Shown here: positions 12,098 to 56,090 of the stretch, one piece after another
Position numbering within the stretch: the first letter of the stretch is position 1
Layout of the letters: each line of letters starts with the position of its first letter
Origin: an uncultured Chloroflexia bacterium
GTDB taxonomy: Bacteria; Chloroflexota; Limnocylindria; Limnocylindrales; CSP1-4
Assembly: GCA_963757865.1 (NCBI GenBank)
Contig: CAVWSU010000005.1
Location: 192,254 to 256,253, forward strand
DNA length: 64,000 bases
Direction of reading: 5' to 3'
Made by a program: the position numbers and the translations under genes
The notes under the pieces: generated by a model
What the model was told of the DNA's origin: nothing
Seen by the model: only the letters and a program-made list of their open reading frames with translations
Databases searched by the model: none

Positions 12098-12571
12098 ATG
12101 GCCCATGCGCTCGTGCTGACGGTGAGCGACCGCTCCGCGCGCGGCGAACGGCCCGACGCAACCGGCCCGCGCGTCGCCGCTCGCCTGCGCGAGCTCGGGC
12201 ACGAGGCCCACGTGCGCATCGTGCCCGACGAGGCCGTGGAGATCGCGGAGGCCGTCTCGGCCGCCGCGACGGACCACGAGCTGATCGTGGTGGCGGGAGG
12301 TACGGGCCTCGGCCCGCGGGACGTGACGCCGCAGGCCGTGGCCGCCGTGCTCGACTACGAGATCCCGGGATTCGGCGAGCTCATGCGCGCCGAGGGCCGC
12401 CGCTCGACGCCACTGGCCACCCTGTCGCGCTCGCTGGCCGGCGTCACCGGCGCGTCGCTCGTGCTCGTCGTGCCCGGCAGCCCCCGCGGCGCGATCGAAT
12501 CGCTCGACGCGGTGGCCCCACTGCTGCCCCACGCCCTCGAGACGCTTGCCGGGGAGGACCACCGGGCGTGA
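12098..12571 (+). CDS. mog: MogA/MoaB-family molybdenum cofactor biosynthesis protein
   Basis: LVLTVSDRSARGERPD, VVAGGTGLGPRDVTPQA, VVPGSPRG. Confidence 0.8.
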   Translation: MAHALVLTVSDRSARGERPDATGPRVAARLRELGHEAHVRIVPDEAVEIAEAVSAAATDHELIVVAGGTGLGPRDVTPQAVAAVLDYEIPGFGELMRAEGRRSTPLATLSRSLAGVTGASLVLVVPGSPRGAIESLDAVAPLLPHALETLAGEDHRA

Positions 12572-14837
12572 CCTCCGAAGTCCCGCTCTACCCGCTCGCG
12601 CCGATCGTGTTCGTGCTCGCGGTCCTCTCGTTCGCGCTGCAGATGGCGCGGCATCTCCGCGTCTTCGGCGCGGCGCGACCCTCGACCGTGGCGGACCGGG
12701 CGGGAGAACGCTTCAGGTCCCTGGTGGTGTTCGCGATCGCCCAGGTCCGCATGTTCCGGGACCCGCGCGCCGGCATCATGCACGCCGCGATCTTCTGGGG
12801 CTTCGTGATCCTGACCGTGGGCACCGCGAACCGCGTGACCGGGGGCCTCGTGGAGGCCGTGCTCGCCTGGCCGGTCGACGGCTGGCTCTGGCGGATCGTG
12901 GTCGCGCTGGGCAACCTGCTGGCCGTCGGCGTCCTGGTCGCGATCGGCTACGCGACGTTCCGGCGCCTGGTGACCAGGCCGGCGCGCATCACGCTCTCGC
13001 GCGACGCCCTGCTGGTCCTGGTCCTGATCGCGGGCATCGTGGTCACCGAGCTGGTGGCCGAGGCCTTCCGCCTGGCCCGCTACGGCGACCCGTACGCGCA
13101 GGCGACGCTCGTCTCGTGGCCGCTGGGGCAGCTGATCGCCGCGCCGCTCGCGCCCGGCGCGCAGGCCGCGATCTTCGGTGTCGCGTGGTGGGCCAACATC
13201 CTGCTCGTCTGCTGGTTCCTGGTCTACCTCCCGGGATCGAAGCACCTCCACATCGCGACGGCGTTCTTCAACACCGCCTTCCGGAAGCTGGCGCCGCGTG
13301 GCGAGCTGCCGCCGATGGACCTCGAGGCGGAGACGGCGACGTTCGGGGTCCGGACCGTGGCGGACCTGGGCTGGAAGGATCTCCTGGACGCCTTCACGTG
13401 CACCGAGTGCGGCCGGTGCCAGGCACAGTGCCCGGCCTGGGCCACGGGAAAGCCGCTGAACCCGAAGACGTTCGTGATGGGGCTCCGCCAGATGGCGGTC
13501 GACGCCGAGCACGGCACGCGGCTGCTGCCAGGCCTGCCGGCCGTGCCCTGGATCCGCCCGTCCGACGCGCCGGGACGACAGTCGGGCGGTGACGCCCGGG
13601 AGGCCCTCGGACGGCCGGTCGTCGACGCCGCGATCCCGTACGACGCGGTGTGGGACTGCGTCACGTGCGGGGCGTGCGTGGAGGCGTGCCCGGTCACCAT
13701 CGAGCACGTCGACAAGATCGTGGGCATCCGGCGCAACCTGGTCCTCGAGGAGAGTCGCTTTCCGGCCGAGATCACCGCGGCATTCACGAACATGGAGCGG
13801 CACGGCAACCCGTGGGGGCAGCCGCGGTCCGCGCGCCTCGACTGGGCGAAGGGCCTGCCGTTCGACGTGCCGACGGCCGCCGAGCTCACCGGCGGGGATG
13901 GCGGGCCGGCGTCCGGCGCGGAGGGGATCGAGGTCCTCTACTGGGTGGGCTGCGCGGCCGCGTTCGACGACCGGAACAGGCGGGTGGCACGCGCCGTCGT
14001 CACGTGCCTGCACGCGGCGGGCGTCCGTTTCGCGGTCCTGGGCCAGGAGGAGACCTGCTCGGGCGACCCGGCCCGCCGCATGGGGAACGAGTACGTGTAC
14101 CAGGTCCTCGCGCAGGCCAACGTCGAGACTCTCGATCGCTACCGTCCGCCGGCCATCGTCACCGCCTGTCCGCACTGCTTCAACACGCTCGCCAACGAGT
14201 ACCCGCAGTTCGGGGGGCACTACGAGGTGGTGCACCACAGCGCGTACCTGTCGAGGCTGGTGGCCGAGGGACGCCTGCGCACCGGGGGAGGGCGGCTGCC
14301 GCTCGCGACGGCGCCCGCCGCGCGGTCGCATGCACGCGCCCGGTCGCGAATGACACCGCGCCCGGGTCGGCCGCGAGTGACGCAGCGCCTGCCGAGCCCG
14401 GCGCCCCGCCGGAGCCCGCAGGCCGGACCGTCACGTACCACGACTCGTGCTACCTGACCCGGTACAACGGCGTCGTCGACGAACCGCGGGCCGTGCTTGC
14501 GGCCGTGCCCGGGCTGGAGCTGCGCGAGATGGACCGCCGCGGGCGGCAGTCCTTCTGCTGCGGCGCCGGCGGCGGCAGGATGTGGATGGAGGAGCGCCGC
14601 GGGATCCGAATCAACGCCGAACGGACCCGCGAGGCGCTCGGGACCGGGGCGGACACCATCGCCACGGCCTGTCCCTTCTGCCTGACCATGATGCGCGACG
14701 GCGTCGCCGATGCGGTCGGCGCGGGACTGGGCGGCGACGGCGTGCAGACGATCGACATCGCGGAGCTGCTGGCGGCCAGCCTGCCGCAGGAGCTGGACGC
14801 CGTGGCCGGCGCGACGACAGGGAGGGAGGCATCGTGA
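12568..14837 (+). CDS. membrane-anchored Fe-S oxidoreductase (NarI-like TM domain, 2x[4Fe-4S], 2 CCG domains; EtfD/HdrD-like), with a frame break
   Basis: N-terminal TM helices. [12 protein letters not shown] and [20 protein letters not shown], then in another frame [24 protein letters not shown]. The protein continues from frame 1 to frame 3 somewhere in 14284-14415, with a G5 run at 14284-14288. Confidence 0.75.
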
Positions 14838-16109: not shown

Positions 16110-16890
16110 GTGCGGATCGTCGTCCTCCTCAAGGCGGTGCCCGTCGTCGGCAACGAGAAGCTCGTGGACGGCTGGCGCGTCGACCGCTCCGCCGGGCTCG
16201 AGGCGAACGGCAACGACGAGTACGTCCTGGAGGCCGCCCTCAAGCTCGTGGAGGCGCACGGCGGAGAGGTCGTCACGCTGTCCATGGGACCGACGCCGGC
16301 GACCGAGGCCATCCGGAAGGCGCTGGCGATGGGCGCCGCGCGGGCGGTGCAGGTCGTGGACGACGCGCTCGCGGGCTCGGACACGCTGGCGACGGGCCGG
16401 GTTCTCGCGGCCGCCCTGGGCCGGCTCGAGTACGACCTCGTCGTCGCCGGGGCGGACAGCTCGGACGGCCAGGGCGGGAGTCACGGGCGCTGCGGTGGCC
16501 GTGCGCCTGGGCATCCCGTACCTCTCGTACGCCGCGGCCATCGAGCCCGACCCGGGGGCCGGGACGGTGCGAGTGCGCCGGATCAGCGCCACCGGCTTCG
16601 ACGTGATCGAGGCGCCCATGCCGGCGCTCATCGCCGGCACCCAGCTGCTCGGCGAGCCGAGGTACCCGTCGCTGCGCGGCATCATGCAGGCGCGAACCAA
16701 GGAGATCGCCGTCTGGACCCTGGCGGATCTCGGCATCGATCCGGCAACCGTCGGATCCGGGGCCGCCACGACCGAGGTCGAGAGTGCCGAGCCCCCGCCG
16801 CCGCGTGCGGGTGCGATCGTGGTCCGGGAGGCGCCGGACGCCGCCGTCGAGCGGATCGTCGAGTTCCTCGCCTCGCGGAGGCTGATCTGA
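16110..16890 (+). CDS. etfB: electron transfer flavoprotein beta subunit, with a frame break
   Basis: VRIVVLLKAVP.., GADSSDGQGG then (one nt skipped near 16476-16480) VTGAAVAVRLGIPYLSY... GGGAGG Shine-Dalgarno sequence before the GTG. Confidence 0.8.
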
Positions 16891-17881: not shown

Positions 17882-18430
17882 ATGGACCCCGCCGTCATCC
17901 TGCCGCTCGCGCTCGCGGCGATTCTCGCCGGTGCGGTGCTGTGGTTCCTGCAGCGCGCGTCGGGGGCGCTCCGGGCCACGCGGAGCATCGAGCGGTTCCA
18001 GGAGGAGGCGGCGAGCCTGGGAGCACGGCTGGACGCCGTCCTCGCATCCACGGTGGCGCGGGTGGACGCGCTTCGCCGGAACGAGGTCGACGGATCGTCG
18101 CTGGTCGACGAGCTGGAGGCCGTCATGACGGCGCTCGACGGGCAGCTCGCGGAGGCGGAGGGGCTCACGCCTCCCATCACCTTCGCGGCGAGCCGGCAGG
18201 GCATCATCTCCGAGATCAGGCACGCCCAGCGGGCTCTCGACATGGTGCAACACGGGTGCGCGCTGGCCGCAGGCCCCAGGGCGCGGACACGCAGCACGGA
18301 ATCGCAGATCTCCATCAAGCGCGGCTATCTCAACCTGCTGCACGCACGGGAAGCCCTCGCACGGCACGTGGGCGATCTCGCCGCCGCCAGGGATCCCATG
18401 GAGTCGTCGTGGAGGACGTCCCGGGTCTAG
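17882..18430 (+). CDS. hypothetical membrane-anchored coiled-coil protein
   Basis: 182 aa. N-terminal TM helix (ILPLALAAILAGAVLWFL) and normal composition. No family recognised. Confidence 0.5.
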   Translation: MDPAVILPLALAAILAGAVLWFLQRASGALRATRSIERFQEEAASLGARLDAVLASTVARVDALRRNEVDGSSLVDELEAVMTALDGQLAEAEGLTPPITFAASRQGIISEIRHAQRALDMVQHGCALAAGPRARTRSTESQISIKRGYLNLLHAREALARHVGDLAAARDPMESSWRTSRV

Positions 18431-18577
18431 CCGTCACCCCGTCGCGGCGGCGGGCGCGTGGTGACACGGACCCGCCCTCCGATGTCCTGCGATCTGTGGC
18501 CGGAGCACCACATCTGGTGGTACGCTCGGAGACCCGGCACCAGCCGTAGTGTCGGACGGCAGGAGGCGAGGTCCGGC

Positions 18578-19063
18578 ATGCGGTGCCCGGCCTGTGGCGA
18601 ACGAGACACGCGCGTGATCGACTCGCGCGACCTGGACGACGGAAGCACCATCCGCCGCCGCCGCGAGTGCACGCGCTGCTCCAACCGGTTCACGACGCAC
18701 GAGCGCGTGGAGGCCGCACGCCTGGTGGTGGTCAAGCGCGACGGGAGCCGCGTGGAGTTCGACCGCGAGAAGCTCGCGATCGGCCTGCAGAAGGCGCTCA
18801 CCCGCCGGCCCGTCCCGGACCGTGCTGCGGAGCTGGCGGCCGAATCCATCGAAGCGGAGCTGCGCGCCGCCGGCGTCAGCGAGGTGCCCTCGCAGCGCGT
18901 GGGCGAGCTGGCCATGGACCGCCTCCGCCATCTCGACCAGATCGCGTACATCCGGTTCGCCAGCGTCTACCAGTCCTTCGAGGACATCGAGCAGCTCAAG
19001 CGTGAAGTCGACGGGCTGCTGTCGGCCCGCGCCGTCGCCAGCCCCGCCGGGAAGGGAGCCTGA
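18578..19063 (+). CDS. nrdR: transcriptional repressor NrdR
   Basis: [17 protein letters not shown]...[17 protein letters not shown] (zinc ribbon) plus an ATP-cone. AGGAGG lies 7-8 nt before the ATG. Confidence 0.9.
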
Positions 19064-19064
19064 C

Positions 19065-20703
19065 GTGAGCGTCCTGTCGGACCGGGACATCCGCGCCGCG
19101 CTGGAGGCCCGCCGGATCCGGATCGACCCGTACGATCCCGGCTGCCTGCAGCCCTCCTCGGTGGACCTTCACGTCGACCGTGACTTCCGCGTCTTCCGCA
19201 ACAACCGCTACGCGTACATCGACGTCCGCGAACCGCAGCCGGACCTCACGGAGCTCATCCGCATCGAGGACGACTCGCCGTTCATCCTGCATCCCGGCGA
19301 GTTCGTGCTGGGGCAGACGCTCGAATGGGTGGAGCTCCCGGACGACCTGGTCGCGAGGCTCGAAGGCAAGGCGCTGGCGCTCGACACGCCGGTCCCCACG
19401 CCGGGCGGCTGGCGGACGATGGGCGACCTCGAGCCCGGCGACACCGTGTTCGACGAGACGGGAGCTCCGACCGCGGTGCTGGCCGTCACACCGCCCATGC
19501 TCGGACGCCCGTGCCGCGAGGTCGTCTTCTCCGACGGCACACGGGTCGTGGCAGACGCGGAGCACCAGTGGGTCACGGTCGACAAGGCGGGTCGGCGTCA
19601 CGGCTCGTGGCGCCTCGGCGTTCGGACGACCGAGGAGATCCGGCGCAGCATCCGGGTCCGCGGCGAGCTGAACCACCACGTGCCGCTCGCCGGCCCCGTC
19701 CAATACCCGGCTCGCATCGACCTGCCGATCGAGCCCTATACGCTCGGCGCCTGGCTGGGTGATGGGACGAGCACCTCCGCCACGATTACCTCCTGGGACG
19801 AGGAGGTGCTCGAGCAGATCAGCGGTGACGGCTACGGCGTTCGCGCGCTGCCGTACGCCAGGCGCGCGTTCCGGATCGGCGGCGCAGGGCACAGCAGAGA
19901 CGTCGCGACGGGACGCTACCGGCGCAACGAGTCGCTCTCGAGCAGTCTGCGCGAACTGGGGTTGCTCGACAACAAGCACGTGCCGGCGTCCTACCTGCAG
20001 GCCGGCCCCGGCCAGCGCCTCGCCCTGCTGCAGGGCCTCATGGACACCGACGGGTTCGTGGACGACGTCGCCGGGCGTTGCGAGTTCACCAGCACGCGCG
20101 AGAGCCTCGCCGATGGCGTGGTCGAGCTGGCCGCCAGCCTCGGGTTCCGGCCCGTGAAGAGCATCGGCAGGGCCACGCTGAACGGTGTCGATTGCGGGCC
20201 GAAGTACCGGGTGAAGTTCACGCCGGACCGCCCGGTGTTCCGTCTGCCTCGCAAGCTTGCTCGTCAGAAGGCTCCCGACGCGAGCTACCAGCGCTTCCGC
20301 GCGATCGACGTCGTGCGTGAGGTCCCGTCGGTCCCCGTGCGCTGCATCCAGGTGGCATCGCCGCGGGGGCTTTTCCTGGTCTCGCGCGTCGTTCATCCCG
20401 ACCCACAACAGCTCGCTCGGCCGACTGGGCCTGCTCATCCACTCCACCGCCGGCTACGTCGATCCGGGCTGGAAGGGCACGCTCACGCTCGAGCTCTCGA
20501 ACGTGGCGAACCTGCCGATCACGCTCTACTGCGGCATGAAGATCGGCCAGATCAGCTTCTTCCGCATGACCAGCCCGGTCGAGCGCCCGTACGGCAGCCC
20601 GTCGCTGAAGTCGAAGTACCAGGGACAGGACACGCCGACGGCCTCCGAGTTCTACCGCGATTTCGCGCAGGATCGACGACTGGGACCGCGCCGGCAACGC
20701 TGA
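19065..20703 (+). CDS. dcd: dCTP deaminase precursor interrupted by an intein (frame break inside the intein)
   Basis: N-extein [10 protein letters not shown]...LVARLEGK (102 aa). C-extein [31 protein letters not shown]...KSKYQGQ. The GTG lies 1 nt after the nrdR stop. Confidence 0.85.
19371..20409 (+). mobile_element. intein (Hint domain plus LAGLIDADG homing endonuclease), class-3-like
   Basis: Block [15 protein letters not shown] (Ala1, GCG 19371-19373). Block B ..ADAEHQW. LAGLIDADG motifs [10 protein letters not shown] and [12 protein letters not shown]. Block F VPVRCIQV (Cys at 20343-20345). Block G FIPTHN followed by Ser+1. 1039 nt equals 346 codons plus 1 nt. Confidence 0.8.
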
Positions 20704-20716
20704 GGACGGGGGACGC

Positions 20717-21574
20717 ATGACCATTCGTGAGGGGATCGCCTGGTCCGCGGACCTGGGCGGAGGGACGCGCATCGCCCTGGTGCAGGCCGGCACGTTCCGG
20801 TCCGACGCGGGCACGCTGTTCGGGCCCGTGCCACGGTTCATGTGGCAGAAGCTCGTGGCCGACGAGATCGACGCGCACGGGGCACTGCTGCAGGCCCTGA
20901 ACTGCCTGCTGGTGGAGACGCCGGGCGGCCGCGTGCTCGTCGAGACCGGCATCGGCGAGCGCTCCGACGAGCGAACTCGGGAGCGGCGCGACATCCAGGG
21001 TCCTCCCGTCCTGCCTGCCCTGCGCACGGCGGGCTTCGATCCCGGGACGGTGGACGTCGTGGCGTTGAGCCACCTGCACTTCGACCACGCAGGTGGGTTG
21101 CTCGCGGCGGACGGCTCGGCGGCGTTCGGCCGGGCCAGGATCGCCGCCCAGCGCGTCGAGTGGGAGTTCGCCCTTGGCGACAACCCGCGCCTGCAGGCCA
21201 GCTACGACCAGGGCGAACTGCGCCTGGTCGAGGAGGCCGGATGGGCCGGGGCGGTCGACGGCGAGGCCGAGCTGCTGCCGGGCGTGACGGCGATCCGCAC
21301 CGGAGGACACTCGGGGGGCCACCAGGGCGTGGTCGTGCGCGGGCGGGATCGCACCGTGGCGTTCTTCGGGGACCTGTGCATGCGCCCCTGGAGCGCGAAC
21401 CCGCGGTGGGTGACCGCGTTCGACGATTTCCCGCTCACGAGCGTCGAGGTCAAGGCCGGCCTGTTCCGACGGGCCGTCGAGGAATCCTGGACCGTGGTGC
21501 TGTCGCACGAGGCCGAGACGCCGGTCGGGCGGATGGTCGCGGATCGCGACCGGTACCGGTTCGAGCCGCTGTAG
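20717..21574 (+). CDS. MBL-fold metallo-hydrolase
   Basis: [14 protein letters not shown] and [10 protein letters not shown] metal-binding motifs. Confidence 0.75.
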
Positions 21575-23715: not shown

Positions 23716-23788
23716 GCCCCCGTAGCTCAGTGGATAGAGCGAGGCCGTCCTAAGGCCTGCGTCGGCGGTTCGAGTCCGTCCGGGGGCG
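23716..23788 (+). tRNA. tRNA-Arg (anticodon CCT)
   Basis: Cloverleaf folded by hand. Acceptor gcccccg/cgggggc, D arm gctc..gagc, anticodon arm aggcc-gtCCTaa-ggcct, T arm ggcgg-ttcgagt-ccgtc. CCA is not encoded. Confidence 0.9.
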
Positions 23789-23789
23789 C

Positions 23790-39234: not shown

Positions 39235-39386
39235 CGGGGCAGCCGGACCGGCGAACCGCCGCGGGGTCGGCGCTTGCCTGCTGGCTTCCGGGAGGTACTC
39301 TCTCAGGCAGCGAGGGCGGTCGCTCGCAGGCGCGGACGTGAACGACGCGCCGCAGGCCCAGATCACGACCGGGAAACGAGCCGGAC

Positions 39387-41441
39387 ATGTCGCTGCTCCG
39401 TCGCGAAGCGCAGGCGAAAGAGCGCGCAGCAGGGAACGCCCCTGCCGCGCAGTCGCCGGCTGCGCCGTCGCCGGCCACGCCTGCCGCGACGCCCGCGGCC
39501 GTGCCCCCCGCCGGGTCCGTTGCGGCTCCGCCTGACCCACGTCCCGACGCATCACCCCGGCCGGCCACGGCTCCCGGCACGGCCGTCGCACCCGTCGCCC
39601 CGACCGCGGCCATCGCGCCGGCTGTGCCCGCGTCGCCGGCTGTGATTGCGTCACCGACCGCGCCTGCCACGCCCACGATTCCCGCAACACCGGGCACGGC
39701 GTCCGCGCCGGCCGCGGCATCGACGGCACGGCTGGCCTCGAGCGTCACGGGTCGCGACCAGCTGCTCCTCGACCTCCGGGTGCAGCTGCACGCAGAGGTC
39801 GTCGGTTCCTTCGACTCACTGCTCGGGGTCACGGACGCGGCGGACCTGCGCGCAAGGGTCACCACGCTCGTCGAGCGGGTGATCGGCCAGGCGCAGATCG
39901 GCGTGACGCGGGACGAGCGGCTCCGGTTCATCGACGAGGTCATCGACGAGATCACGGGGCTCGGCCCGCTCGAGCCACTCCTGGCCGACGAGACCATCAC
40001 CGAGATCATGGTGAACGGACCCCGCCAGATCTACATCGAGCGACGAGGGAAGATCCTGCGCGTCGACAGCGCGTTCATGGGTGACGAGCACGTCCTGCGG
40101 ATCATCGACCGGATCATCGCCCCGCTGGGACGCCGGATCGACGAGTCGAGCCCCAGGGTGGACGCCCGGCTTCCCGACGGCTCGCGCGTCAACGTGATCA
40201 TCGAGCCACTCTCGCTGGTCGGGCCCGTGATCACCATCCGCAAGTTCGCCGCGCGGCCGTACACGGTCGAGGACCTCGTGGGGTTCGGCACGTCGACGGC
40301 CGAGATGTTCGAGTTCCTGCGGGTGTGCGTCGAGGCCCGGCTCAACATCTTCGTCTCCGGCGGGACCGGTTCGGGCAAGACCACGTTCCTGAACGTCCTG
40401 TCCTCGTTCATCCCGAACGACGAGCGGATCATCACGGTCGAGGACGCGGCCGAGCTGCAGCTGCGCCAGGATCACGTGGTCACGCTCGAGGCGCGCCCCC
40501 CGAACCTCGAGGGCGAGGGCGAGATCACCATCCGGGACCTCATCCGAAACGCCCTGCACATGCGTCCCGACCGGATCATCGTCGGCGAGTGCCGGTCGGG
40601 AGAAGCCCTGGACATGCTCCAGGCGATGAACTCCGGGCAGGAGGGCTCCCTGTCCACCGGCCACGCGAACACGCCGCCGGACATGCTCCGACGCCTCGAG
40701 ACGATGGTGCTGATGACCGGCTACGAGCTGCCGCTGCGCGCCATCCGCGAACAGATCGCCTCGGCCGTCGACGTGATCGTCCACACCGCGCGCCTGAAGG
40801 ACGGTTCGCGCAAGGTCGTCAACATCACCGAGGTCTACGGGATCGAGGACGACGACATCCTCACGCAGGACATCTTCGCGTTCGAGCAGACCGGCGTCGT
40901 GGACGGCAGGATCCAGGGGCACCTCTCTCCGACCGGGATCCGCCCGACGTTCATGCGCAAGCTGATCGCCTCGGGCGTCGCGCTTCCACCCGGCGAATTC
41001 GGCATCCCGCCGGAGGATCCCGCGCGACCGGGACCCCTGGGGAAGGGCCGGTGGGGCGCGGGCGAGTCCGCGCAGGGGTCGGATGTGTCCGGCGCGCGTG
41101 TCGGCCGGGGCCGGGTGGTCAAGGCCGGGGGCATGGTCTACGTCTCGTCGATCGGGCCGGTCGATCCCGAAACGGGCCGCGTGGTGAGCTCGGAGATCAG
41201 GGAGCAGACGCGCCAGTGCCTGCGCAACCTGAAGTCGTCGCTCGAGTCGGCCGGGAGCTCCCTGGAGAAGGTCGTCTGGGCGAACTGGTCGCTGCGCGAG
41301 CCCGTCGAGTTCGACACGTTCAACGAGGAGTGGGCGCGCTGGTTCCCGGGCGACGCGCCGGTGGGCCAGGGGACGCTGCTGCCCCCGCTGCACCGGCGCG
41401 CCGGATTCCGGGTCTCGATCGGCGTCATCGCCGAGGCCTGA
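39387..41441 (+). CDS. cpaF: CpaF/TadA-type secretion ATPase with an Ala/Pro-rich N-terminal linker and an in-frame C-terminal RidA/YjgF-like domain
   Basis: ITEIMVNG, Walker A SGGTGSGKTT, ITVEDAAEL, IIVGECRSGEALDMLQAMNSGQEGSLSTGHAN. C-terminus: VKAGGMVYVSSIGPVDPETGRVV..EQTRQCLRNLKSSLESAGSSLEKVV..FNEEWARWF (RidA pattern). Confidence 0.85.
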   Translation: MSLLRREAQAKERAAGNAPAAQSPAAPSPATPAATPAAVPPAGSVAAPPDPRPDASPRPATAPGTAVAPVAPTAAIAPAVPASPAVIASPTAPATPTIPATPGTASAPAAASTARLASSVTGRDQLLLDLRVQLHAEVVGSFDSLLGVTDAADLRARVTTLVERVIGQAQIGVTRDERLRFIDEVIDEITGLGPLEPLLADETITEIMVNGPRQIYIERRGKILRVDSAFMGDEHVLRIIDRIIAPLGRRIDESSPRVDARLPDGSRVNVIIEPLSLVGPVITIRKFAARPYTVEDLVGFGTSTAEMFEFLRVCVEARLNIFVSGGTGSGKTTFLNVLSSFIPNDERIITVEDAAELQLRQDHVVTLEARPPNLEGEGEITIRDLIRNALHMRPDRIIVGECRSGEALDMLQAMNSGQEGSLSTGHANTPPDMLRRLETMVLMTGYELPLRAIREQIASAVDVIVHTARLKDGSRKVVNITEVYGIEDDDILTQDIFAFEQTGVVDGRIQGHLSPTGIRPTFMRKLIASGVALPPGEFGIPPEDPARPGPLGKGRWGAGESAQGSDVSGARVGRGRVVKAGGMVYVSSIGPVDPETGRVVSSEIREQTRQCLRNLKSSLESAGSSLEKVVWANWSLREPVEFDTFNEEWARWFPGDAPVGQGTLLPPLHRRAGFRVSIGVIAEA

Positions 41442-42364: not shown

Positions 42365-42456
42365 GCTCGTCGCGGGTCGGTCTCGCCGGTGGCTCGGCGC
42401 GGTCGAGGCGGCCTGAGCATGGCCGCGCGTCAACGCCCCCCGCGTGTCCGACGAGC
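42365..42456 (-). promoter_or_regulatory. conserved structured leader element, copy A (upstream of the DUF4242-SRPBCC operon)
   Basis: 92 nt. RNA sense: GCUCGU..CGCGGGGGGCGUUGACGCGCGGCC-AUGCUCA-GGCCGCC..CGCCG-AGCCAC-CGGCGAGACCGACCCGCGACGAGC. Lies 117 nt upstream of the start codon. Confidence 0.45.
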
Positions 42457-44179: not shown

Positions 44180-44271
44180 ACTCGTCCGGGTCGGTCTCGC
44201 CAGTGGCTCGGCGCGTCCCCGGCGGCCTGAGCATGGGCCGCGCGTCAATACCCCCCGCGCGCCACACGAGC
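44180..44271 (-). promoter_or_regulatory. conserved structured leader element, copy B (upstream of the MBL hydrolase)
   Basis: 92 nt with the same architecture as copy A. Core GGCGAGACCGACCC, CGCCGAGCCACUGGCG and GCGGCC..GGCCGC are conserved. Confidence 0.45.
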
Positions 44272-44854: not shown

Positions 44855-44866
44855 GACCGCCTCCAT

Positions 44867-44949
44867 GCACACGCGGGTCGGTCTCGCCAGTGGCTCGGCG
44901 CGGTCTCGGCGGCCAGGATCTGGACCGCGTGTCGGTGCCCCCCGTGTAC
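44867..44949 (-). promoter_or_regulatory. conserved structured leader element, copy C (immediately upstream of the SRPBCC gene)
   Basis: 83 nt with the same core. The outer helix is GUACAC/GUGUGC rather than GCUCGU/ACGAGC. Its 3' arm lies next to the Shine-Dalgarno sequence. Confidence 0.45.
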
Positions 44950-45144
44950 CGGCTACCGTTCGCCGCCGCTGGCGCGCGACAAGAGGCCATTCGGACCACT
45001 GGGCAGGCCGTCTGGCAGGAGGCTGGCCGTCGTACCGATGGTCGACAGGACCCGGCCTCCTGGGCATGCTCGCTCAGCGCCTGCCCACCCCACACCGCGA
45101 CGCGGAGTGGCGCAGCATGTGCCGGCACGCACGGAGGGAGGCCC

Positions 45145-46085
45145 ATGCGCTCGTTTCGGTTCATCGCGGACCTGTCCGCGATCGTGGATGGACGGACGCT
45201 CGCCGAGAGGGCCCGCCGAGCCGAGTCCATTGGCTACGACGAGATCGTCCTGGGCGACCACCTGCTGGAGCAGCTGGCTCCCATCCCTGCGCTGGCAACC
45301 GTCGCCGCGGCGACCGACCGGATCCGCATCGGCACGTTCGTGCTCAACAACGACCTGCGCCACCCGGCCGTGCTCGCCCAGGATCTCGCCACGCTCGACG
45401 TTCTGAGCGGGGGTCGCCTGGAGGTCGGGATCGGAGCCGGATGGAACGAGCCCGAATACGCCGCCATCGGCCTCGCCTTCGACGGCCCCGGCCGCAGGAT
45501 CGAGCGAATGACCGAAGCAGTGGCGATCCTCAAGGGCCTGTTCGCCGACGGGGCGTTCTCGTTCCAGGGCACGCATTACACGATCAAGGGACTCGACGGG
45601 CAGCCGAAACCGGTCCAGCGGCCCCATCCGCCGTTCCTGATGGGCGGTGGTGGCCGGCGCATGCTGACGTTCGCGGCCCGGGAGGCCGACACCGTGGGGC
45701 TCGCGCCCATCGCAACGGGGGAGGGTCGGGCATCGTCGACGACTGCATGGCCGCGGCGACCGAGCGGAAGATCGGCTGGATCCGCGAGGCGGCAGGTGAT
45801 CGGTTCGAACGCCTGGATCTCAACGTGTACCCGGCGGTGGGGCCCGTGCGCGTGACGGATGACGCCCTGGGAGAGGCCACCGAGCTCGCGCACCGATTGA
45901 TGAGCCGGCATGGCGGGGACGTATCGGCCGGCGAACTCCTGGAATCGCCGTTCGTCTACATCGGCTCCGTGGACGGGCTCGTCGACAAGCTGATCGCCGC
46001 CCGTGAGCGCTTCGGGATCAACTGCCTGACGGCATTCGACATGGACCAGCTGGCGCCTGTCGTCGAACGGCTGGCTGGGACGTAG
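45145..46085 (+). CDS. LLM-class F420-dependent oxidoreductase, with a frame break
   Basis: MRSFRFIADLS.., VLGDHL, RIGTFVLNNDLRHPAVLAQ, GRLEVGIGAGW, PFLMGGGGRRML. After LAPIATG the protein continues in another frame (..IVDDCMAAATERKIGWIREAAGDRFERLDLN..). G5 run at 45717-45721. Confidence 0.75.
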
Positions 46086-56013: not shown

Positions 56014-56090
56014 GGGCGGTTGGCTCAGTCGGTTAGAGCGCGTGCTTGACATGCACGAGGTCACAGGTTCGATTCCTGTACCGCCCACCA
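56014..56090 (+). tRNA. tRNA-Val (anticodon GAC), CCA encoded
   Basis: Folded by hand. Acceptor gggcggt/accgccc, anticodon arm cgtgc-ttGACat-gcacg, T arm acagg-ttcgatt-cctgt, discriminator A, then CCA. Confidence 0.9.

Follow-up and report, generated by a model that had tools for sequence, protein, structure and literature searches.

Class 3 inteins have been defined on helicases and terminases and were thought to be essentially confined to the P-loops of ATPases. They have no N-terminal nucleophile, carry a Trp-Cys-Thr (WCT) triplet, and are followed by Ser or Thr, rarely Cys, at the +1 position (PMC2807308). The residues of the triplet occupy position 12 of block B (Trp), position 4 of block F (Cys), and position 5 of block G (Thr) (PMC2807308, PMC5050341). 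In DnaBi1 of Mycobacterium smegmatis, Cys118 is the initiating nucleophile, and the C118A substitution kills splicing (PMC6195587). That splicing strictly depends on the block F Cys, and that it proceeds via a thiol-labile branched intermediate at block F, has been demonstrated only for DnaBi1 and for the DnaB intein of mycobacteriophage Bethlehem (MP-Be) (PMC2807308, PMC6195587). Here we describe a 64,000-nucleotide (nt) stretch of DNA from an uncultured Chloroflexia bacterium (GTDB lineage Chloroflexota; Limnocylindria; Limnocylindrales; CSP1-4; assembly GCA_963757865.1, contig CAVWSU010000005.1, positions 192,254–256,253 of the forward strand; hereafter the window), in which dcd, the gene for dCTP deaminase (Dcd), is interrupted by a 346-codon insert with the features of a class 3 intein. 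Taken as a whole, the locus is probably an nrdR-dcd operon in which dcd bears a class 3 intein that is mobile, contains a LAGLIDADG homing endonuclease, and has P-loop ancestry, the one extra base in the deposited gene being an assembly or consensus indel.

dCTP deaminase has been found with inteins before. An intein allele called dtd was reported in the deoxycytidine triphosphate deaminase of six Halobacteria and, at that time, of no Bacteria (Soucy et al. 2014, PMC4071816). The intein in dCTP deaminase (gp069) of cyanophage vB_AphaS-CL131 excises itself in Escherichia coli, and the same paper cites two bacterial cases (Sulcius et al. 2018, PMC6293099). Hence dcd is a catalogued intein host, although it was not known as one in the preliminary description of the window. 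Our literature search, whose coverage was incomplete, found no description of a class 3 intein in dcd, and such sequences are abundant in databases.

Class 3 features of the insert in dcd

Joined in silico, the two parts of dcd gave a 199-aa product that matched the TIGR02274 model (dCTP_deam) end to end (1–179 of 180) with 222.8 bits (cut-off, 92.8), and that matched the solved structures of Dcd from Mycobacterium tuberculosis (2QXX; E = 6e-72) and E. coli (1XS1; E = 1.9e-36). The insert splits the Pfam DCD profile cleanly into 1–100 and 100–153. The last codon of the N-extein is Lys AAG (19368–19370), and the C-extein resumes as SSLGRLG at the Ser+1 codon AGC (20410–20412) and runs to a stop at 20701–20703; it differs from the C-extein of P0002, an intact precursor, by a single amino acid. 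The preliminary description had placed the end of the N-extein at LVARLEGK (19370) and the resumption at 20410, with Hint blocks A, B, F, and G and two LAGLIDADG motifs in between. Direct reading and translation gave the same boundaries, and all blocks and motifs read as stated there (Table 1). The GC content of the intein is that of its surroundings, and neither a second dcd nor a second copy of the intein was found within the 64-kb window.

The splicing domain of the insert was identified by phmmer searches of the PDB, which matched M. smegmatis DnaBi1 (6BS8; E = 2.5e-28), 6RIX (1.3e-27), and the endonuclease domain of PI-SceI (1.3e-7). The matches to 6BS8 and 6RIX/6RIY span the N-terminal 70–86 and the C-terminal 36 residues, and PI-SceI matches the middle. 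In the alignment, Ala1, Cys48, Asp62, His65, and Trp67 carry the residue numbers of DnaBi1, Cys325 is aligned to Cys118, and Thr344-His345-Asn346 (Asn346 codon AAC, 20407–20409) to Thr137-His138-Asn139. The Trp, Cys, and Thr that had been proposed as a WCT signature alongside Ala1 are thus aligned to Trp67, Cys118, and Thr137 of DnaBi1; because they occupy the class 3 columns of that intein, the signature does not result from misalignment. A Pfam scan of the insert returned two families over their cut-offs, LAGLIDADG_3 with 26.2 bits and Hom_end with 23.6 bits. A free-standing endonuclease gene and a group I intron were also considered for the insert; both were ruled out by the continuous single open reading frame (ORF) in relatives and by the presence of the Hint blocks.

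Conservation of residues, junctions, and lengths was assessed in the best 120 of more than 2000 database homologues of the intein, a number that, like the E value of the match to 6BS8, far exceeds what chance would give. All 120 are dCTP deaminases of 508–572 aa, and 119 of them, from Limnocylindrales (Chloroflexota), are intact with the intein, reading EGK^A...HN^SSLGR in a single frame (the caret marks a splice junction). The intein is 346 aa long at identical junctions in 116 of these 119. Residue 1 is Ala in 119 of the 120 and Ser in one, whereas D62, H65, W67, Asp131, C325, T344, H345, and N346 are invariant (120/120), as is Asp227, the second acidic residue of the LAGLIDADG motifs; GLMDTDG is at least 98% conserved. 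SSLGR follows the intein in all 119 intact relatives, with Ser+1 invariant.

With Ala1, W67/C325/T344, and Ser+1, the dcd intein has all the sequence features of class 3, and the insert is confirmed as a class 3-type intein by every criterion that applies at the sequence level. Ala1 by itself also occurs in class 2 KlbA inteins (PMC2807308), and the class 3 route is predicted for the dcd allele from its sequence. We therefore weighed the alternatives that the insert is an intein using another route, such as a class 2-like attack by the +1 residue, or that it is a non-splicing insertion that is tolerated or otherwise cleaved. Class 2 inteins have no WCT triplet and use Cys+1 (PMC2807308), whereas the dcd intein has an invariant W67, C325, and T344 matched to two crystallised class 3 inteins, and its +1 residue is Ser. 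Additionally, Dcd is a trimeric enzyme, and it is hard to see how a 346-aa insert in its catalytic loop could be retained across two phyla unless it was removed. These alternatives are very improbable, and a class 3-type intein is the preferred interpretation.

Insertion site and predicted splicing

Alignment to 1XS1 placed the intein in the active-site loop (GK-SSLGR), after Lys102 and before Ser103. This junction corresponds to Arg110^Ser111 of E. coli Dcd, with Arg115 at +5, and falls between Lys101 and Ser102 of M. tuberculosis Dcd (2QXX). The residues numbered Ser111 and Arg115 in the preliminary description were corroborated by this structure-sequence alignment. We take these two residues of E. 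coli Dcd to be catalytically important; their catalytic role was reportedly described by Johansson et al. in 2005. Ser+1 would then double as the splicing nucleophile and, later, as an active-site serine of Dcd, and a precursor with a 346-residue loop insertion should be inactive.

The splicing steps can be predicted from those of two homologous inteins, M. smegmatis DnaBi1 and MP-Be DnaB. Starting from a 545-aa precursor presumed to be inactive, Cys325 (block F, position 4) would attack the Lys102-Ala1 peptide bond to give a thioester branched intermediate, and the N-extein would be handed to the hydroxyl of Ser+1. Cyclisation of Asn346 would free the intein, and an O-to-N acyl shift would rebuild the GK-SS loop.

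Table 1 Features of the nrdR-dcd locus and of the upstream genes with frame breaks (positions in the window).
Feature	Position	Strand	Basis
nrdR, 161 aa	18578–19063	+	tblastn with nrdR of relative L083, 87.6% identity over residues 1–161
dcd N-extein, 102 codons, GTG start, ending ..LVARLEGK	19065–19370	+	Pfam DCD 1–100, TIGR02274 1–101; alignment to 2QXX and 1XS1
Class 3-type intein of 346 codons and one surplus nt (1039 nt), including a LAGLIDADG homing endonuclease	19371–20409	+	phmmer against PDB; Pfam
Block A, residue 1 Ala (GCG, 19371–19373), non-nucleophilic	19371–19412	+	aligns with ALALDTPLPTPSGW of 6BS8
Block B, ADAEHQW: Asp62-x-x-His65, Trp67 (W of WCT; codon 19569–19571)	19551–19571	+	ADAQHQW of 6BS8, same residue numbers
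First LAGLIDADG motif, including LGAWLGDGT, acidic Asp131	19737–19769	+	inside the region matched by PI-SceI
Second LAGLIDADG motif, including LQGLMDTDG, acidic Asp227	20019–20054	+	covered by Pfam LAGLIDADG_3 and Hom_end
Block F, VPVRCIQV: Cys325 (C of WCT; codon 20343–20345), predicted initiating nucleophile	20331–20354	+	SVPVRCVEV of 6BS8 (Cys118)
Surplus nucleotide (+1), Arg codon before the frame change (caret) in ..LFLVSR^SFIPTHN	~20385–20388	+	DNA alignment to intact L001 and L002, one-column gap in both
Block G, FIPTHN: Thr344 (T of WCT), His345, terminal Asn346	20392–20409	+	MVPTHN of 6BS8
dcd C-extein, 97 codons and stop, beginning with Ser+1	20410–20703	+	Pfam DCD 100–153, TIGR02274 101–179
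etfB, one-base insertion at 16479 (..CAGGGCGGG(A)GTC.., inserted base in brackets)	16110–16887		comparison with intact relative
Fe-S (4Fe-4S dicluster)/CCG-domain oxidoreductase, frame change in 14292–14424	~12550–14837		two CCG domains in different frames

The nrdR-dcd locus

The position of dcd directly behind nrdR, as proposed earlier, was verified by tblastn with nrdR of a relative (Table 1). The orthologues of nrdR in relatives contain the Pfam domains Zn_ribbon_NrdR and ATP-cone, and the gene order nrdR-dcd is kept in relatives with and without the intein. Since the nrdR stop codon (TGA, 19061–19063) is one base ahead of the dcd start codon (GTG at 19065), the two genes are probably co-transcribed and translationally coupled. 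A promoter and terminator scan over 18300–20900 returned zero sites.

Distribution and probable mobility of the dcd intein

To describe the distribution of the element, we used a species scan with one genome per species. The same allele (EGK^ALALDT...IPTHN^SSLGRLG) was found in 17 Limnocylindrales/Chloroflexota representatives at 69–80% identity and in four metagenome-assembled genomes (MAGs) of Actinomycetota at 56–65% identity, namely Actinomycetes SMAG_U4530, uncultured Actinomycetes MFD04944.bin.2.166, a Gaiellaceae, and a Solirubrobacteraceae. The element is common in uncultured soil Chloroflexota and is present in some Actinomycetota.

A fifth copy from Actinomycetota (L034, 2680–4262; uncultured Actinomycetes MAG MFD04944.bin.2.116, CAVXTD010000008.1) has several frameshifts and in-frame stops in the intein, and its exteins are both in one frame. 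This copy could be decaying, or the local consensus could be poor in a population mixed for the intein.

A search with the spliced Dcd retrieved intein-less proteins that are ~200 aa long and as much as 92% identical to it. The gene of the closest of these, P0121, lies in the same neighbourhood, consisting of acyl-CoA dehydrogenase, etfB, etfA, a hypothetical gene, nrdR, dcd, metallo-beta-lactamase, redoxin, DsbD, and Glrx. Because the gene neighbourhood is identical, the intein-less dcd genes are empty alleles and not second copies; in the relative L083, for example, the empty site reads ..CTGGAGGGCAAG^TCGAGCCTGGGGCGG... It had been suggested in the preliminary description that relatives with an intein-less dcd at another locus would make the copy in the window a dead relic. 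That scenario is unsupported, since the intein-less genes are alleles at the same nrdR-dcd locus.

When the sequences were ranked by identity of the core extein to that of the window, occupied and empty alleles alternated (100% occupied, 95% occupied, 94.6% empty, and so on), and the nearest neighbour of 24 of the 240 sequences had the opposite intein state. As intein-less alleles of high extein identity share the nrdR-dcd locus, the dcd intein appears to be mobile and patchily distributed, in the pattern of an active or recently active homing element. The endonuclease would cut intein-less dcd and copy the element in, and such homing would explain why, at a single locus, some close relatives have the intein and others lack it.

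The codons of Ser+1 and Ser+2 differ between allele types. Occupied Limnocylindrales alleles have AGC TCN (20410–20415 in the window), whereas TCG AGC is found in the closest empty locus, L083. Of the four occupied alleles of Actinomycetota, three start with TCG, and the fourth (L023) reads AGC TCT. Two substitutions are required to switch between AGC and TCG, and the difference may be a sign of separate lineages or of flanks that were co-converted.

Relationship to P-loop inteins

In the same species scan, ~57 other loci with 38–49% identity were found to be inteins in DnaB, RecA-like, terminase-like, and other ATPases. Examples of their junctions are ARPGxGK^STLGLDF in DnaB, GPEGSGK^TTLALHA in RecA-like, and GKGNGK^SP.. 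in terminase-like proteins, and Gly-Lys^Ser/Thr was found at 75 of the 78 junctions of the scan. An exhaustive search of 1.84 billion cluster representatives gave 18,493 related clusters, of which 4,313 had E ≤ 1e-30. Junctions could be parsed for 127 of the top 150 representatives; GK^S/T was present at 89 of these, and only three were dcd. The closest non-dcd relative found was an intein in a DnaB-family helicase, 51% identical over the splicing and endonuclease domains, and phage terminases came next; the phage relatives in GenBank, with ~40% identity, are in terminase and DnaB-like genes.

Insertion between Lys and Thr of Walker A has been called the 'classic' P-loop insertion (Kelley et al. 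2016, PMC5050341), and the dcd junction EGK^SSLGRLG resembles GxGK^STLGLDF of DnaB. The most probable ancestor of the lineage is an intein at the P-loop (GK^S/T) of a phage ATPase or of a DnaB-type helicase. It would have moved ectopically into dcd, a non-ATPase gene, through the look-alike site EGK^SSLG, which is the probable point of entry because it resembles the P-loop junction GK^STLG. If so, no earlier case has been documented in which a class 3 intein left the P-loop for a non-ATPase via GK^S mimicry.

A surplus nucleotide near the end of the intein

In the deposited sequence, the N-extein and the intein through ..LFLVSR are in one frame (mod 3 = 0), and block G and the C-extein are in another (mod 3 = 1). 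The window reads TCG CGC G TCG, whereas L001 and L002, two relatives with an intact gene whose inteins are 93% and 85% identical to that of the window, read TCT CGG TCG and TCC CGT TCG. The extra base, eight codons ahead of the intein end, is in a CG-repeat, TCGCG(C)GTCG. The preliminary description had located one surplus nt within 20365–20393 and had pointed to G5 and T4 runs; the interval holds, whereas the context is CGCG and not either of the runs. Among the 120 homologues examined above, FL(V/A)(S/T)xSFIPTHN is in one frame in 119. The sole defective entry, P0001 (551 aa, 100% identical), is a wrong-frame read-through of the window sequence itself.

Other frame breaks were sought by a codon-position GC scan followed by comparison with relatives. 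The etfB gene, for the beta subunit of electron-transfer flavoprotein, is broken by a one-base insertion, and the Fe-S oxidoreductase, which is a single 573-aa protein in L002, is broken in a variable linker (Table 1). tblastn with the proteins of L083 confirmed the splits of these two genes, and the other eight genes tested are each in one frame. Together with dcd, three conserved genes in a 6.5-kb stretch thus have a single-frame break, and etfB and the oxidoreductase, both within 6 kb of dcd, are intact in relatives. Apart from the one base, dcd has no further lesion in its 346 intein codons and 97-codon C-extein, and all the catalytic residues are intact. The names of related MAGs (MFD...contig_N) are typical of long-read assemblies, and the window may come from a project of that kind. 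Since etfB and the Fe-S oxidoreductase nearby are likewise frameshifted and the rest of dcd is flawless, an assembly or consensus indel is the likeliest source of the extra base. We regard this explanation as quite likely; the real gene would then be intact and splicing-competent.

If the frameshift were real, dcd would be a very recent pseudogene, and dUMP would be made via UDP reduction plus Dut or by dCMP deaminase. The deposited sequence is indeed frameshifted and its public gene call (P0001) reads through in the wrong frame, a damaged copy of the intein is on record in L034, and a class 3 intein pseudogene, Arth_1007 of Arthrobacter, has been reported (PMC3196547). However, the intein and C-extein in the window have no other lesion, and the breaks of the same type in etfB and the oxidoreductase fit consensus errors better than a simultaneous loss of several conserved genes that are intact in relatives. 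A real pseudogene is therefore unlikely. We also considered that ribosomes bypass a real frameshift by programmed +1 frameshifting, with an added step of translational control, as the two frames overlap without stops for some distance. Against this, the extra base is present in none of the 119 relatives, no slippery or stop-codon-stimulated motif is recognisable in TCGCGCGTCG, and the nearby genes are broken similarly; such bypass is improbable in the extreme. An indel in the assembly or consensus is thus preferred to both alternatives.

IF3, MoeA, MoaC, and EtfA were flagged by GC at third codon positions (GC3) as further frameshift candidates and were ruled out by their complete domains. In a luciferase-like monooxygenase gene at 44857–46082 (+), only 17–194 of the 314 profile positions are matched and a coding-type GC3 signal extends to 46070 in a different frame, a possible fourth frameshift. 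An ORF at 39342–41441 (+) joins a truncated type II/IV secretion ATPase (T2SSE, profile positions 3–279 of 370) to an endoribonuclease L-PSP/RidA domain and may be a fusion made by a frameshift.

Other features of the window

The window has a GC content of 72%. It contains three c-di-GMP-II-GAG riboswitch aptamers (Rfam RF03169) on the minus strand, at 42366–42449, 44180–44264, and 44867–44951, with scores of 54.7, 62.2, and 70.8 bits, respectively (gathering score, 40), all within 2.6 kb. These aptamers may control the adjoining minus-strand genes. Genes for tRNA-Arg(CCT) and tRNA-Val(GAC) are at 23716–23789 (+) and 56014–56090 (+), respectively.

Discussion

Several observations weigh against the interpretation of the locus given here. 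The Hint and intein models of Pfam and NCBIfam gave no match to the insert at E ≤ 0.01, the only families reported being DCD, LAGLIDADG_3, and Hom_end. Because of this, the Hint assignment rests on the PDB sequence matches. The AlphaFold2 model of the intact precursor P0002, built from a 31-sequence alignment, had a mean pLDDT of 46, with the endonuclease core alone moderately confident. A Foldseek search with this low-confidence model retrieved PI-SceI, 6RIX, 6BS8, and I-DmoI (TM ~0.5 for I-DmoI), fold matches that offer weak support because the model is poor. Conservation was measured among sequences with 75–93% identity and in part reflects shared ancestry. The deposited gene P0001 has neither block G nor the C-extein, and its product would be unable to splice. 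Finally, counts of junctions and sequence similarity, rather than a rooted tree, are what suggest that the transfer went from a P-loop host to dcd.

Under H2O2, DnaBi1 forms a reversible disulphide between Cys48 and Cys118 that pauses its splicing (PMC6195587). The dcd intein retains Cys48 and the block F Cys, as do 75 of 77 relatives. Since the pair is kept in these relatives whatever the host, it is ancestral and gives no evidence of adaptation specific to dcd. It is thus doubtful that the dcd intein serves as a redox-sensitive conditional splicing switch on the dUMP/dTTP supply, linked to NrdR. If it did, oxidative stress would gate the synthesis of thymidylate precursors post-translationally in abundant soil Limnocylindria.

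With dcd linked to NrdR and Ser+1 in a dual role, splicing would have to precede the formation of dUTP/dUMP from dCTP. A splicing-dependent dCTP route would therefore be a property of these uncultured soil Chloroflexota, which are a widespread group. The intein is present in thousands of database entries of 536–572 aa that are named merely 'dCTP deaminase' and are missed by the standard Pfam and NCBIfam intein models; the plain public name is probably due to the failure of these models to detect the Hint domain. Assembly indels can, in addition, make such genes look like pseudogenes. The dcd lineage reached a metabolic enzyme of a different fold, at a site that resembles a P-loop in nothing but the local sequence GK^S(S/T)LG, and it offers a natural test of the target sequence needed by the homing endonuclease versus that needed by the splicing domain to enter a new host protein. 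The general understanding of inteins is unchanged, and nothing in the predicted mechanism is unprecedented; what is added is an insertion site, a host, and a plausible route of spread.

Among the known systems, DnaBi1 of M. smegmatis (6BS8) and DnaB-1 of M. chimaera (6RIX/6RIY) belong to the same splicing-domain family as the dcd intein, with SVPVRC(I/V)xV in block F and PTHN in block G, and they too have Ser at +1 and Gly-Lys at −2/−1. However, they are mini-inteins of 139–145 aa that have lost the endonuclease, whereas the dcd intein has 346 aa with a full LAGLIDADG domain, and they are inserted in the true Walker A of a helicase, whereas the dcd intein is in a non-ATPase of dUTPase-like fold. 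The prototype class 3 intein, MP-Be DnaB, agrees with the dcd intein in its non-nucleophilic residue 1, WCT triplet, Ser/Thr at +1, and LAGLIDADG endonuclease, and is of similar size (341 versus 346 aa) (PMC2807308). Its host is a phage helicase, in contrast to the cellular nucleotide-metabolism enzyme of Chloroflexota/Actinomycetota that holds the dcd intein.

The known inteins in dCTP deaminases are comparable chiefly in their host. The halobacterial dtd allele is in the same gene family, in Archaea. The CL131 intein shares the enzyme family and the catalytic loop (GK-S-[ST]-x-x-R), but it is inserted five residues downstream (GKSTYAR^CGII), has Cys1, Cys+1, and an HNH endonuclease, and belongs to class 1, so that homology is limited to the Hint fold. 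Accordingly, dcd was already known as an intein host, and its insertion site and class 3 type in the window appear to be new.

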